Shown here: positions 55,708 to 60,563 of the stretch, one piece after another | Position numbering within the stretch: the first letter of the stretch is position 1 | Layout of the letters: each line of letters opens with the position of its first letter | Assembly (NCBI GenBank): GCA_016176335.1 | Contig: JACOXI010000004.1 | Span: 82,303 to 146,302 of the forward strand | Reading direction: 5' to 3' | DNA from: Candidatus Daviesbacteria bacterium | Lineage (GTDB): Bacteria; Patescibacteriota; Microgenomatia; Daviesbacterales; UBA10151 | DNA: 64,000 nucleotides | The notes under the pieces: generated by a model | Databases searched by the model: none | The model's input: only the letters and a program-made list of their open reading frames with translations | Told to the model about the DNA's origin: nothing | Translations under genes and position numbers: made by a program

Positions 55708-56586
55708 CTAAACTTTTCTCAGGCTTGCAGGGAAAGCAAGATGCCATGAAGGAAGAGGTCTCTGTATTTGCCCTCCATATCCAACAGCGCGTGGCAATTG
55801 TCTAAGAAATTCATTATCTCCTCCCTGGAAACCAACAATGACTTGTGAGGGACCTCGTAATGCATAAAAACCCCAAGGTGCTAAATGGCTTGCATCAAAC
55901 GCATAAAATCCTCCAAATCTTAATATTCCCCTCCATAGTGGATATGGAGCAGGAGGAATCATTCTTTCCGTAATAAGAGCCGCACTGAATGTACGAGCAT
56001 AAGATTCTGTATCTGTTGGAATTCTTTCTGCTTCCGCCTCCGGAACAGTTACACCATATACATTTTGGGGATATTCCAACGGGGAAGGGGCCACATCGAT
56101 TTGTTGAATGTCAAAGCCATCCCTCAGAAGCCAGGCAACTCCGATAGGGCGCTTTAAATTGGGTTCATAAGTTCCAATACGAAGATGGCGGGGTGTGAAA
56201 TGTCCAGGTTTATCAGGACAATCATTTCGTTCTATCTCTATAGTTGCGGTTGCCTGCTCAAGAGCAAAAGGTTCATCCGAAACCTCAGGATTTCCGATCC
56301 AAAGTATAGAGCGGGTACGTGGATGCTGTATTAGCTGGAAATTCATTCCTTGTAGATGATGAGTAACCACAGCAGTTGGTCTTTGAATATCAATACCGAT
56401 TGCCACCCTTATTAGATCTTGAATTCCGCGAAAAGTAAAGGGGATTCTTCTTGTAGGTTCTTCCTTTGTACCGAGCCTAGCTGCTGCTGTTCTTCTATCT
56501 ACTCCTATTAATCCATTTAGAGATAAAACTTTGTGAGGTTTGGAGATTTCTTGAACCAATGCTATTTCTACACCCAATCCTGCCAT
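55708..56586 (-). CDS. hypothetical protein with atypical (Pro/Arg/Gly/Trp-rich) composition
   Basis: 292-aa ORF with no competing ORF. Local GC visibly higher than the surroundings and codon usage unlike the neighbours. Confidence 0.4.
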   Translation of the reverse strand: MAGLGVEIALVQEISKPHKVLSLNGLIGVDRRTAAARLGTKEEPTRRIPFTFRGIQDLIRVAIGIDIQRPTAVVTHHLQGMNFQLIQHPRTRSILWIGNPEVSDEPFALEQATATIEIERNDCPDKPGHFTPRHLRIGTYEPNLKRPIGVAWLLRDGFDIQQIDVAPSPLEYPQNVYGVTVPEAEAERIPTDTESYARTFSAALITERMIPPAPYPLWRGILRFGGFYAFDASHLAPWGFYALRGPSQVIVGFQGGDNEFLRQLPRAVGYGGQIQRPLPSWHLAFPASLRKV

Positions 56587-56708
56587 AATTTCAGGGCAAT
56601 GTGGTCAGTTTAACACCATGTAGAAGAAAGTCAAGAGTTTAGATTACCTTTTACATCTGCCCTGATAATTTCTGCAATCTTAGCTCTAATCTTCATTTTT
56701 TTCAGAAA

Positions 56709-56963
56709 GTGAGATATAATCTACCTGTTTTGCCTCGATTGCCAACGTGGTCAAGGCGTCCGCCTGAAGAGCGGATTATCTCAGTTCGATTCTGGGTCGA
56801 GGCACATCATAACAGCCAGTCGAAATATACTAAATTTACTGCACTGTTTGAGTTAGTTTATAGGGAAGAATATCAAACAAAGCACGAAGCTTATAGACGA
56901 GAGATGTACTTTAAAACAGGAAAAGGTAGAGAAGAGATTAAAAATATTCTAATGCGGCGGTAG
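56709..56963 (+). pseudogene. YhbQ-like GIY-YIG nuclease reading frame overlapping tRNA-Phe and tRNA-Gly (probable remnant)
   Basis: C-terminal half ...HHNSQSKYTKFTALFELVYREEYQTKHEAYRREMYFKTGKGREEIKNIL matches the GIY-YIG/YhbQ family (HNSGKGAKYT...LVYYEEFETKSEALKREKQIK). The N-terminal half is degenerate and coincides with the tRNA-Phe sequence. The stop codon lies inside the tRNA-Gly acceptor stem. Confidence 0.45.
56732..56804 (+). tRNA. tRNA-Phe (GAA)
   Basis: Perfect 7-bp acceptor gcctcga/tcgaggc, anticodon loop ctGAAga, canonical T-loop ttcgatt. D-stem only 3 bp. Confidence 0.65.
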
Positions 56964-57025
56964 TTCAGTGGTAGAATGTCTCGTTGCCAACGAGAAGGTC
57001 GCCGGTTCAAATCCGGTCCGCCGCT
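56954..57025 (+). tRNA. tRNA-Gly (GCC)
   Basis: Perfect acceptor gcggcgg/ccgccgc, anticodon loop ttGCCaa, T-loop ttcaaat. Confidence 0.8.
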
Positions 57026-57298
57026 CATAACCGGACCTGTTTTTGGAAATTCTGCCAATTTGTCCTCAAAAATAATCTTTTCTCTATTCCAAGCCTCAAT
57101 TTTTAACTTTTTTTCGGTAGCTTCAGAAAATTTATACCGGTGATCGGAATTGAACCTGTCTCAGTTTTTTTCAATAAATTGAATTGAACTAGTTGTTGTA
57201 CTCGTAGTAGTGGTAGCTCTGGTTTATGAAGTAGATTATTGATACAGTGAACCAAGTACTTGACAAAATAGAAACTAGTATGCTAGTCTATTATTAAG

Positions 57299-57988
57299 AT
57301 GGCAATTCAATGGTATCAAAGATCAGACTCGTTTCTTAGGGATACAACTCCAAAGATTACTCTACGTAAGGAGCATATAGGTTACAATGCCGTGTTTACC
57401 AAAGTAGCCAACTTGAACCAATATAACAGAGTTCGACCGGGCATTGATTATGAAAACTATAGAATATATTTCCAGTTTCTTTATCAAGACAAAAATGTTA
57501 AAGGTGTGGAAGGTAATTTTAAGGATACATTAGCTCTCTATTCAGATAATCCTAATGATGTTACCAAATCTACAGGTGCTCAGAAGCTATATGAGCACCA
57601 TGCATTACTTAGGAATATCTCTGAGTATGAAAACCAAAAACATAGACAGTTTGAGGTAAAACAAGACCTTGAGGATACTAGCATCTGGTTTGCCCAGCTT
57701 CATCCTACCTTTGAACACATTGTAGGGCCTACTGCCGATCTTAAAGGTTTAAGAGGTATATATCGATACAAAAATAACGGCTTGATAGTATATATTGGAA
57801 AGGGTGTTATTGAGTCCAGAATAAATGCTCCTAAAAGAACGAAATGGGTATACGATACCATTGAATATTCAGTCATAAACGATCCCGAAAAACAATTTGA
57901 ATGGGAAAACTTTTGGATTAAGAAGTACAAAGAGGATAACGAAGGAAAATTGCCGTTCTATAACCAAAATAGTGGAAGAGGCCATTAA
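57299..57988 (+). CDS. GIY-YIG-domain protein (C-terminal GIY-YIG nuclease motif), hypothetical
   Basis: LRGIYRYKNNGLIVYIGKG gives the GIY...YIG pair, with Arg/Glu/Asn downstream. N-terminal 150 aa unknown. Confidence 0.55.
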   Translation: MAIQWYQRSDSFLRDTTPKITLRKEHIGYNAVFTKVANLNQYNRVRPGIDYENYRIYFQFLYQDKNVKGVEGNFKDTLALYSDNPNDVTKSTGAQKLYEHHALLRNISEYENQKHRQFEVKQDLEDTSIWFAQLHPTFEHIVGPTADLKGLRGIYRYKNNGLIVYIGKGVIESRINAPKRTKWVYDTIEYSVINDPEKQFEWENFWIKKYKEDNEGKLPFYNQNSGRGH

Positions 57989-58053
57989 TCACGACTCGAC
58001 CTCATTTGTCGTATTATAATTCTGGGGATTTTTGCCGGAGACCAAATTCTGAC

Positions 58054-59449: not shown

Positions 59450-59491
59450 AAGTCAATAAGGTATAATATGGTAGATTGGAGGTGAGGAAAT

Positions 59492-59740
59492 TTGGATAAA
59501 CCAGTAGGTAAAGTTGTACACTTCTATGACAAATTGGGTGTGGCCATAGTTGATCTTGAGTCAGGAGGATTAAAGGTTGGTGATGAGGTCAAATTCAAAA
59601 GGGGTGAAGAAGAGTTTGATCAGAAAATAGAGTCTTTACAGGTTGACCACGAAAGTGTGGATCAGGTAAAAAAGGGAGATTCATTTGGGCTGAAGGTTGA
59701 TAAACCCACCAAACCCGGTACTTCAGTGTATCTGGTCTAA
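59492..59740 (+). CDS. small hypothetical beta-barrel-like protein
   Basis: 82-aa ORF with two repeated K(V/G)GD...(F/L)K(V/R) half-motifs. Confidence 0.4.
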   Translation: MDKPVGKVVHFYDKLGVAIVDLESGGLKVGDEVKFKRGEEEFDQKIESLQVDHESVDQVKKGDSFGLKVDKPTKPGTSVYLV

Positions 59741-59749
59741 GATTGGTAA

Positions 59750-60370
59750 CTACTGTACAATTATCTCGCCGATATTGCGGTCGGTGAGATTACAGGTATT
59801 TGTTTTAATGGCATAGGTGCCGGTTGAACTGAATTGCACCTCTATAATTTGATTATCCCCAATCTCATATCTTTTGTCCTTGATAAAAAGACAGGAGTTT
59901 GGGGCTACATTTTGGAATTTAAGATAATATTTACTATTTTTTGATAAAGTCACCTTAAAGTTAGCATCTTTGGATAAATCGATATCATATACTTTTTGAT
60001 CTACCCCAACTGATATATTATCTGCAGTTAAAACATTAATACTGATTACTTTTTCATCTGATGTTTGTTTATTAAAAACCGTATCTAAAACCTCTTGAGC
60101 CTTATCATAAATAGTTTCCTTTGTGTTATTGACAGCATTTTGAGAATTTTGTTCTAAATTGTCCTTCGTATCTTTGACCGAAGTTTGATAGCGGGTAACA
60201 GTTTGTCCTAAAGTACCACTGACAGACTCTCTTGCAGTCCTTGTGAAATCTCCAAACAGAAACACCAGCAGTAATGAGGCTAAAATGATGACAATAATAA
60301 CGGTGATAATCTTGACCATTACCCTTATTATAGACATAGTCCTTTGGGTTTTGATAGAATTTGATAACAT
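59750..60370 (-). CDS. membrane-anchored hypothetical protein
   Basis: N-terminal TM (IITVIIVIILASLLLVFLF) then a Thr/Asn/Lys-rich extracytoplasmic domain. Confidence 0.45.
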   Translation of the reverse strand: MLSNSIKTQRTMSIIRVMVKIITVIIVIILASLLLVFLFGDFTRTARESVSGTLGQTVTRYQTSVKDTKDNLEQNSQNAVNNTKETIYDKAQEVLDTVFNKQTSDEKVISINVLTADNISVGVDQKVYDIDLSKDANFKVTLSKNSKYYLKFQNVAPNSCLFIKDKRYEIGDNQIIEVQFSSTGTYAIKTNTCNLTDRNIGEIIVQ

Positions 60371-60441
60371 TGCGGGATCGTCTAATGGTAGGACGGTAGC
60401 CTTTGGAGTTACCTATCATGGTTCGAATCCATGTCCCGCAG
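60371..60441 (+). tRNA. tRNA-Gln (TTG)
   Basis: U1-A72 pair and G73 discriminator (Gln identity elements). Perfect acceptor tgcggga/tcccgca, anticodon loop ctTTGga, T-arm catgg-ttcgaat-ccatg. Confidence 0.8.
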
Positions 60442-60545
60442 CTAGCAAAATTTAGACTCTCTTTGAGCCTGAATTTTGATATGTGAGACTTAAGGATTGG
60501 GACCCGTTTACGAGGTTCGTTAATCCGCCGTAGGCGGATACGTCT

Positions 60546-60563
60546 CTATCCATGTCCCGCAGC
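60546..60563 (+). repeat. 16-nt direct repeat of the tRNA-Gln 3' end (atccatgtcccgcagc)
   Basis: Identical to 60427-60442, about 120 bp downstream of the tRNA. Intervening sequence has a T-loop-like ggttcgttaatcc and a ccgccgtaggcgg hairpin. Confidence 0.6.

Follow-up and report, generated by a model that had tools for sequence, protein, structure and literature searches.

What is the short, CCA-ending tRNA-like element that stands among the tRNA genes of a Candidatus Daviesbacteria genome, and what remodelling of its surroundings left it there? The locus lies at 55708–60563 of a 64,000-nucleotide stretch (assembly GCA_016176335.1, contig JACOXI010000004.1, positions 82,303–146,302); the whole stretch is called the window here, and positions are counted within it unless a related contig is named. 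A reading made from the letters alone (the sequence-only reading) had described a decayed, tRNA-centred integration hotspot in which partial tRNA copies are scars of integrase-mediated insertion or excision, and had offered as an alternative that the CCA-ending RNA is the acceptor piece of a permuted transfer-messenger RNA (tmRNA). Comparison with related contigs leads to a reading that we hold with somewhat better than even confidence: the element is a displaced pseudo-tRNA-Gly, the junctions of a conserved backbone have been invaded repeatedly, the invaders at tRNA-Gly are homing-like GIY-YIG cassettes, and the neighbouring tRNA-Gln carries an insertion scar. The features on which this reading turns are:

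56732–56805, plus strand: tRNA-Phe(GAA) (ARAGORN; Rfam 53.3 bits)

56954–57026, plus strand: functional tRNA-Gly(GCC), a-type allele, without encoded CCA (ARAGORN; Rfam 71.9 bits)

59046–59054, plus strand: extended -10-like motif TGaTATAAT, a consensus match only, read from the sequence ~40 nt upstream of the pseudo-tRNA

59091–59153, plus strand: pseudo-tRNA-Gly, tRNA positions ~10–76 of an older b-type tRNA-Gly(GCC) allele, CCA encoded

59155–59187, no strand assigned: hairpin terminator (aaaatccggcc..ggccggatttt) common to the tRNA operon and the convergent DUF378 gene

59213–59449, minus strand: DUF378 membrane protein, a backbone gene (PF04070, E = 2e-14; syntenic in relatives)

59492–59740, plus strand: 82-amino-acid (aa) EF-Tu-domain-2-like (EF-Tu-D2-like) protein, a backbone gene and the anchor (PF03144, E = 7e-7)

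60371–60442, plus strand: tRNA-Gln(UUG) (ARAGORN; Rfam 58.6 bits)

The element reads GGTTCAATGGTAGAT-GGTCGC-CACG-GCGAC-AGGTC-GTGGG-TGCGAGT-CCCGT-CTCCCGC-T-CCA and runs into the hairpin aaaatccggcc...ggccggatttt: a D-arm (GGTTCAATGGTAGAT), a 5-bp stem with the 4-nt loop CACG, a variable loop, a T-arm, the strand CTCCCGC, a discriminator U and CCA, with the 5-bp-stem, 4-nt-loop hairpin in place of the anticodon arm. The odd unit that the sequence-only reading had pointed out, with its Gly-type 3′ part, CCA, terminator, 4-nt loop and missing 5′ strand, is thus real, with tRNA homology starting at 59091 instead of 59085. It does not conceal a canonical tRNA with an overlooked 5′ strand: the sole match to GCGGGAG nearby comes from the minus strand, as the complement of the 3′ strand of the element itself, and the closest plus-strand copy sits at 35935, 23 kb upstream. 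Both the 7-bp acceptor stem and the 7-nt anticodon loop of a canonical tRNA are lacking. ARAGORN calls no tRNA or tmRNA at 59091–59153, and Rfam, run on the whole window at the gathering threshold and on 58900–59300 at E ≤ 10, reports no tRNA or tmRNA at the element, just chance microRNA and small nucleolar RNA matches. Folding gives z-scores of -1.7 and +0.4 and no tRNA-like minimum-free-energy (MFE) structure. A split or permuted tRNA was considered and rejected, there being no GCGGGAG upstream.

The identity of the element emerges from gene order. About 30 related contigs share the backbone tRNA-Val, glmS, tRNA-Phe, tRNA-Gly(GCC), terminator, convergent DUF378, EF-Tu-D2-like gene, tRNA-Gln; they include two contigs of related genomes retrieved with GlmS as query (L001 and L002) and 26 metagenome contigs (L016–L041) retrieved with the 82-aa EF-Tu-D2-like protein, which is 76–89% identical at the aa level across those 26. 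Direct inspection upstream of DUF378 finds the terminator hairpin at the same position in 15 of 15 loci, and the CCA-terminator junction is conserved across loci. In L001, an intact tRNA-Gly-CCA occupies this position, ending ...CCGCTCCAcaaaaatcc directly before the same terminator and DUF378; window and L001 align from the D-arm through CCA, terminator and DUF378 and lose homology 5′ of the D-arm, which makes the element the positional ortholog of tRNA-Gly minus its first ~9 nt.

Its T-arm, D-loop GG and Gly-type 3′ acceptor strand align with intact tRNA-Gly(GCC) alleles of relatives, which come in two types: a-type genes, with the acceptor GCGGCGG/CCGCCGC, comprise the working gene of the window and those of L019, L001 and L027, and b-type genes, with GCGGGAG/CTCCCGC, are intact in L017, L018, L021, L022 and L024. 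The relic matches the b-type genes of L017, L021, L022 and L024 in T-arm and acceptor; since b-type genes of relatives encode CCA, the CCA of the relic, a feature of just 2 of the 9 tRNA genes in the window, is an inherited one. Alignment and synteny together show the CCA-ending element to be the 3′ two-thirds of an ancestral b-type tRNA-Gly(GCC) gene, still joined to its own CCA and terminator. The present working tRNA-Gly, 2 kb further upstream, has the highest Rfam tRNA score in the window; it is one of the three tRNA genes (Phe, Gly, Gln) that the sequence-only reading had listed and that ARAGORN and Rfam confirm. In L002, L024, L025, L033 and L038, the tRNA-Phe/tRNA-Gly pair (56732–57026 in the window) is inverted relative to the backbone.

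This orthology also disposes of the two-piece (circularly permuted) tmRNA, a notion that we regard as virtually excluded. Superficially, the element does look like the acceptor piece of such a molecule: its T-arm, 3′ acceptor strand and encoded CCA come with no 5′ strand. However, ARAGORN is able to recognise permuted tmRNA and calls none in the window, the Rfam tmRNA families have no match at E ≤ 10, neither a GCGGGAG 5′ strand nor a tag open reading frame (ORF) lies downstream, and the terminator and the convergent gene that directly follow CCA leave no place for a coding piece. The test against tmRNA models that the sequence-only reading had called for is therefore negative.

Relatives carry remnants of tRNA-Gly at the same place in several states of decay. 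Before the terminator, the 3′ remnant measures ~63–69 nt in the window, 11 nt in L016 and 9 nt in L027, and is a degenerate scrap in L019. The last contig has the order tRNA-Phe, intact 81-aa GIY-YIG ORF, a-type tRNA-Gly-CCA, 'aaaaa' and a relic that shares the GGTCGCCACGGCGAC hairpin. The relics of window and L019 are identical at 54 of 59 positions overall and at 22 of 22 in the junction-proximal hairpin, their distal T-arms differ, each resembling or matching another intact allele, and the adjacent GIY-YIG DNA and the EF-Tu-D2-like gene are each 75% identical at the nucleotide level. Recent transfer of the entire GIY-tRNA-relic block between the two lineages was rejected as an explanation: the GIY part is 75% identical and the region is a mosaic. 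In L027–L029, the order is tRNA-Gly, GIY-YIG ORF, a second type of relic, the 9-nt scrap and the terminator; in the second relic, the 17-nt anticodon arm is a 7-bp stem with a GAU loop. In L002, the intact tRNA-Gly gene is preceded by a GIY-YIG ORF that closes with an exact 17–18-nt duplicate of the 5′ end of that tRNA. A scan of viral contigs gave no match to the relic hairpin.

Can a classical integrase account for this? An islet whose attachment site copied the 3′ part of the tRNA, so that the relic would be its right end (attR), is suggested by the layout of tRNA, cargo and partial 3′ tRNA copy, by a cargo of accessory and orphan genes, by the variability of this slot in relatives and by serine recombinases active in the neighbourhood, at tRNA-Gln. 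Yet the window and every examined variant of the tRNA-Gly slot lack an integrase or a remnant of one; the two tRNA-Gly copies do not form a direct repeat, being separate alleles whose acceptor strands mismatch; remnants of 9, 11, 59 and 63–69 nt define no single crossover site; and L002 duplicates the 5′ end of the gene instead of the 3′ end. Varying breakpoints, non-identical flanking alleles and the 5′-end duplicate together argue against a single site-specific crossover, and we consider an integrase islet at tRNA-Gly quite improbable. The simple version of it, a chimeric left end (attL), was dismissed on the ground that the two copies differ in their acceptor strands. Integrases reportedly fall into classes by sublocation within tRNA genes (Williams 2002, Nucleic Acids Res); variable breakpoints in or near the D-arm, as at tRNA-Gly, are not a known sublocation. 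The view of partial tRNA copies as insertion scars holds, as does that of a decayed hotspot, given that genes between the same tRNAs vary in nearly all related contigs; the attribution to integrases is plausible at tRNA-Gln, where recombinases exist in L002 and L018, and does not fit tRNA-Gly.

What recurs at these junctions is another kind of gene, represented in the window by a remnant:

56806–56963, plus strand: 5′-truncated small GIY-YIG pseudogene, C-terminal 52 codons kept (weak PF01541; tblastn E = 1.7e-19)

The remnant covers positions 34–74 of the 78 in the PF01541 profile (E = 0.0087, a weak match). The corresponding site of L019 holds an intact 81-aa ORF, with the last 52 residues of which the remnant shares 69% aa identity. 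Intact orthologs have both the GIY and the YIG motif; here these are gone with the first 29 residues, and the small GIY-YIG copy of the window, the other GIY-YIG gene of the sequence-only reading, is thus a pseudogene. Its stop codon, TAG at 56961–56963, coincides with positions 8–10 of tRNA-Gly, so RNase P processing of a co-transcript would remove the stop codon from the mRNA and may in this way limit expression of the nuclease. Stop codons on the same tRNA-Gly positions (U8-A9-R10) occur at L019 5141–5143 (U8-A9-G10) and L002 12355–12353.

Small GIY-YIG ORFs of relatives, which we take to be stand-alone proteins of the COG2827/UPF0213 (YhbQ-like) type, are co-oriented with, and wedged between, tRNA genes or their relics (Leu-Leu, Phe-Gly, Gly-relic). 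Among 11 non-redundant ORFs, 7 lie within 35 nt of a tRNA gene, compared to 2.0 expected by random placement in the same loci (P = 5e-4). At the Phe-Gly junction, the gene is present in the window, L019, L002 and L038 and absent in L001, L024, L033 and L037. These positions show that GIY-YIG genes, and not integrases, are the recurrent companions of these tRNA junctions, and we infer that homing-like GIY-YIG cassettes fit tRNA-Gly better than an integrase does.

The conservation of the relic could be read in another way, as that of a functional tRNA-like small RNA kept by selection: an elbow mimic, a processing or decoy element, or a nuclease immunity site. The identity of window and L019 relics, while neighbouring coding DNA is only 75% identical, would fit this, as would the second relic type of L027, in which a perfect tight hairpin likewise replaces the anticodon arm. 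The extended -10-like motif upstream and the terminator downstream would complete a transcription unit, and the pseudo-tRNA could be transcribed on its own from TGaTATAAT, which the promoter scan passed over because it has no -35 match; promoter and terminator sites in that scan are no more numerous than in shuffled sequences. On the other hand, in most relatives an intact tRNA or mere scraps of 9–11 nt stand in place of the element; it lacks a 5′ acceptor strand, folds no more stably than shuffles (z = +0.37) into an MFE structure without a T-arm, and matches no Rfam family; moreover, recent homing with co-conversion explains the same pattern. We therefore judge a selected RNA unlikely and return to the displaced pseudogene.

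Between the working tRNA-Gly and the relic lies a module that has counterparts elsewhere:

57027–57298, plus strand: conserved spacer travelling with the 229-aa gene (similarity to L012, L005)

57299–57988, plus strand: 229-aa protein with an N-terminal domain of unknown function and a predicted C-terminal GIY-YIG-fold nuclease domain

58054–58926, minus strand: 290-aa orphan ORF, cargo of the same module as the 229-aa gene

Window positions 57092–58952 (spacer, 229-aa gene, 290-aa gene and its upstream sequence) are homologous to L012 5803–7608, a segment 3′ of tRNA-Gly(CCC). The spacer is 78% identical over 208 nt to L012 5803–5999 and 70% identical to L005 5818–5967, in both cases between tRNA-Gly(CCC) and the 229-aa homolog; the 229-aa gene also stands 3′ of a tRNA-Gly in L005, L015 and L048. 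This collinearity shows the spacer, the 229-aa gene and the 290-aa gene to be, by homology, one module common to tRNA-Gly(CCC) loci of other Daviesbacteria. As to its ends, the working tRNA-Gly of the window, 72/72 identical to that of L019, lacks the CCA present in the L019 copy and is followed by a 3′ trailer that aligns with the trailer of tRNA-Gly(CCC) in L005 and L012, which places the left junction within the shared 3′ acceptor sequence; the right junction, 58953–59090, matches nothing. On the minus strand of the spacer, 57136–57170 holds a motif kept in the window, L005 and L012, the reverse complement of which, GGTTCAATTCCGATCACCGGTA, approximates a degenerate tRNA T-loop and acceptor end and may be one more tRNA relic, oppositely oriented.

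The 229-aa protein is identical to a Candidatus Daviesbacteria protein and belongs to a family of 51, none with a Pfam domain; the ORF has no Pfam, NCBIfam, PHROG or PADLOC match, and the family profile is negative against PDB sequences. The family has the invariant residues G153, Y155, Y165, G167, R180 and N222 and a near-invariant E203. An AF2 model has a predicted local distance difference test score (pLDDT) of 89.4 (an earlier model from a 20-sequence alignment, with pLDDT 55.8, was discarded). A structure search with it returns the UvrC GIY-YIG domain as the top five PDB matches (probability 0.99–1.0, template modelling score (TM) 0.56, E just 0.03), and in BFVD the C-terminal domain pairs with GIY-YIG nucleases of phages, the N-terminal one with phage proteins of uncharacterised nature. 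Only conserved motifs and the modelled fold support a GIY-YIG domain in this protein. The second GIY-YIG protein announced by the sequence-only reading thus stands on fold and motifs, while a sequence-profile match is lacking. In L053, a 229-aa homolog occurs in a prophage-like context with a serine recombinase.

The 290-aa ORF has 13 homologs and no Pfam domain; it is 83% identical at the aa level to the ORF adjoining the 230-aa gene in L012, and its other homologs are in unrelated accessory contexts. One of these lies in L046 (3015–9596) between an AAA_15/AAA_21 ATPase and a type I restriction-modification operon, a defence-island-like setting; PADLOC does not recognise the window protein. 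Window positions 56981–60385 recur with 100% identity in four independent assemblies of the same strain (L049–L052); all four assemblies break within tRNA-Gly (window 56981–56997), and one stops at 59068, just 5′ of the relic. These breaks hint at a branch in the assembly graph, i.e., at population variants with and without the module.

A different kind of scar follows tRNA-Gln:

60443–60547, plus strand: 105-nt filler between the repeat copies, starting with native trailer and hairpin

60548–60563, plus strand: orphan tRNA-Gln 3′ end, T-loop to discriminator, an exact 16-nt repeat

The 16-mer ATCCATGTCCCGCAGC, spanning tRNA-Gln from T-loop to discriminator, has exactly two copies, 60427–60442 and 60548–60563, where 0.01 chance matches would be expected at up to 2 mismatches; the exact repeat that the sequence-only reading had noticed is confirmed, with its second copy starting at 60548 and not 60546. 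The second copy with its next 3 nt equals the end of the L002 tRNA-Gln plus flank (19/19). The filler opens with 27–31 nt that correspond to the tRNA-Gln trailer in L034 and to a downstream site in L027 and L029, and 60480–60566, repeat included, folds better than shuffles (z = -2.9). Just 5′ of the orphan end, 60510–60547 consists of GAGGTTCG and a 28-nt stretch with the hairpin atccgccgtaggcggat; together these could be the 5′ half of the T-arm split by an insertion. In L019, another tRNA-Gln allele is followed 1.07 kb downstream by the orphan ATCCATGTCCCGCAAC, with the same breakpoint as in the window, and L016 has a 14-nt scrap directly 3′ of its tRNA-Gln.

Large serine recombinase genes overlap the tRNA-Gln 3′ end in antisense in L002 (512 aa) and L018 (525 aa). 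Both proteins have Resolvase, Recombinase and Zn-ribbon domains, and that of L002 matches XisF/Ccr models at E = 1e-31. The L002 gene, the C-terminus of which is partly antisense to the tRNA, is flanked by inverted, not direct, repeats of ~90 nt (13250–13340 and 14878–14967), an arrangement that suggests a minimal recombinase-only element or an invertible segment. The search for integrase or recombinase remnants that the sequence-only reading had proposed was therefore fruitful in relatives alone: Pfam finds no recombinase domain in the ORFs of 55.7–61.8 kb, tyrosine integrases being covered just through that scan.

With moderate confidence, the tRNA-Gln repeat is best read as the outcome of a site-specific T-loop insertion and a later deletion, and an integrase origin is plausible there. 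Two results tell against it: the copies are just 105 nt apart, and the sole tblastn match in the window to the L002 serine recombinase is the trivial tRNA-Gln overlap. They favour a possible, although less probable, course of events in which no site-specific recombinase took part and the repeat stems from slippage, a local duplication or the replacement of an allele by homologous recombination; L019 and L016, which have a different tRNA-Gln allele before the old 3′ end, and the regional tRNA-Gly, where allele replacement likewise left remnants, point the same way. Such events do not easily explain why window and L019 share the T-loop breakpoint despite unrelated fillers of 105 nt and 1.07 kb, nor why serine recombinases overlap the 3′ end of this very tRNA in L002 and L018.

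Insertion at tRNA-Gln and homing at tRNA-Gly can be combined into the following sequence of events. A free-standing GIY-YIG cassette linked to a replacement tRNA-Gly allele would have entered the resident gene via a double-strand break, and tRNA homology would have served its repair on one side or both. The portion of the old tRNA-Gly beyond the break would have been left as a pseudo-tRNA, and its altered, closed anticodon arm may resist re-cutting, as an immunising lesion. The 229/290 module would have come later, its left junction via tRNA-Gly homology. The 16-nt tRNA-Gln repeat would be the original 3′ end displaced by a T-loop insertion, probably of a serine-recombinase element since almost wholly deleted. 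On the homing model, co-conversion near the junction and a recipient-derived distal sequence would explain why the relics of window and L019 share the hairpin (22/22), differ in distal T-arms and adjoin GIY-YIG DNA of only 75% identity. More specific claims, namely that the GIY-YIG ORFs are chromosomal homing cassettes that carry a resistant tRNA allele and leave an immunised, anticodon-less pseudo-tRNA, or else that the pseudo-tRNA is a selected RNA, are put forward tentatively.

Several observations weigh against a homing origin. The small GIY-YIG proteins (~80 aa), putative nucleases devoid of a DNA-binding domain, may not be site-specific, and their sole counterpart in the window is dead. 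Nor do a-type allele and GIY-YIG gene always go together: L001 has an a-type tRNA without one, and L002 and L038 have b-type tRNAs with one. Classical two-sided homing should leave no partial duplicate, and imprecise or one-sided repair must be assumed. The test of tRNA proximity is just partly independent because the loci were collected around tRNA genes. As regards the 229-aa family, PF01541 has no match in 20 members at E ≤ 1, hhalign against the small GIY-YIG proteins gives a probability below 1%, and homologs in L008–L011, L053 and L055 are located away from tRNA genes. Finally, the mosaic of lineages bars reconstruction of the order of events.

The slots of the backbone are unlike in spacing, orientation and gene content in almost every related contig, and tRNA identities are mosaic among lineages, like glmS. 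The syntenic glmS (window 53910–55652) has two forms, one ~80% identical at the aa level (L001, L027–L029) and one ~40% identical (L019, L022, L024, L033) among small neighbour genes that are 84–87% identical, which suggests that glmS underwent xenologous replacement or mosaic recombination. Between tRNA-Gly and terminator, the slot holds an EamA transporter in L018 (3639–4487) and a phosphoribosyl pyrophosphate (PRPP) synthetase in L037 (545–1492); the hotspot thus takes up housekeeping-type cargo besides orphans. In the window, two further slots contain orphan genes:

55708–56586, minus strand: 292-aa orphan ORF in the variable slot between glmS and tRNA-Phe

59750–60370, minus strand: 206-aa membrane-anchored orphan ORF in the variable slot before tRNA-Gln

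The 292-, 290- and 206-aa ORFs have no match in Pfam, PHROG, PADLOC or NCBIfam. The 292-aa ORF has 7 homologs among 1.84 billion representative proteins, and its slot is filled by unrelated 75-aa and 367-aa ORFs in L001; the 206-aa ORF has no tblastn match in any related locus, the slot being taken by an unrelated 87-aa ORF in L001 and lacking a gene in L019. The 292-aa ORF had been called compositionally atypical: it is indeed richer in GC (43.5% vs 39.7 ± 2.9%), owing to its amino-acid content, but its GC at third codon positions (0.26) is typical for this genome. Base composition, another of the checks that had been proposed, gives no sign of foreign origin.

What does the locus teach? There are precedents for tRNA-linked islets, for pseudo-tRNA scars and for GIY-YIG genes within tRNA clusters, and the locus serves as an instructive case of a familiar type of hotspot and establishes no new class of RNA; domain-only GIY-YIG ORFs in chromosomal tRNA operons of the Candidate Phyla Radiation (CPR), accompanied by layered relics, have no description in the literature searched. 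A false lead is removed, the element being neither a tmRNA piece nor a novel tRNA, and synteny is seen to let CCA-ending tRNA-like fragments be recognised as displaced gene remnants. The locus also offers a testable picture of tRNA-operon remodelling in small CPR genomes, in which selfish GIY-YIG genes settle between tRNAs, alleles are replaced and layered relics pile up before a fixed terminator. If homing is the cause, conservation of the pseudo-tRNA hairpin would reflect repeated recent homing, tRNA alleles would spread as passengers of nuclease genes, with consequences for tRNA-based phylogeny and annotation, and these nucleases would be natural enzymes that recognise tRNA genes.

Among known systems, the two-piece tmRNA resembles the element in that its T-arm and acceptor 3′ strand end in CCA and have no 5′ strand next to them; the element differs in having no coding piece, tag ORF, pseudoknots or detection by ARAGORN or Rfam, and in being a tRNA-Gly ortholog. 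tRNA-targeted integrative islands are another such system: partial tRNA 3′ copies flank accessory DNA in the window, an exact 16-nt repeat starts in the tRNA-Gln T-loop, and recombinases are found at the same tRNA in relatives. Unlike such islands, the window has no integrase, and its tRNA-Gly copies are different alleles. The large serine recombinase elements (XisF/Ccr-like) have counterparts in the L002 and L018 proteins, with matching domains and an antisense position over tRNA-Gln; these are present here in relatives alone, and the L002 gene is bounded by ~90-nt inverted repeats, not direct ones.

Of the stand-alone GIY-YIG proteins, the presumed COG2827/UPF0213 type agrees in size (~80–100 aa) and motifs with ORFs of L002, L012 (which has PF01541 on record), L019, L027, L038 and L040 and with the window remnant; in the literature searched, proteins of this type are not described as tied to tRNA operons or pseudo-tRNA relics. 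A parallel for such a tie comes from phage T4, where SegB, a GIY-YIG homing endonuclease encoded in a tRNA cluster, recognises a tRNA T-arm motif, cuts at tRNA 3′ ends and drives inheritance of its own gene together with neighbouring tRNA genes (PMC2330249). The present locus differs from this case in being on a bacterial (CPR) chromosome and not in a phage, in its small, domain-only ORFs (~80 aa), which lack the DNA-binding domain of Seg/I-TevI and often end inside the next tRNA, in the partial pseudo-tRNAs left behind, and in that its nucleases are putative ones. It is like SegB in that GIY-YIG genes lie between co-oriented tRNA genes, are present or absent among relatives, and appear to take neighbouring tRNA alleles along with them.

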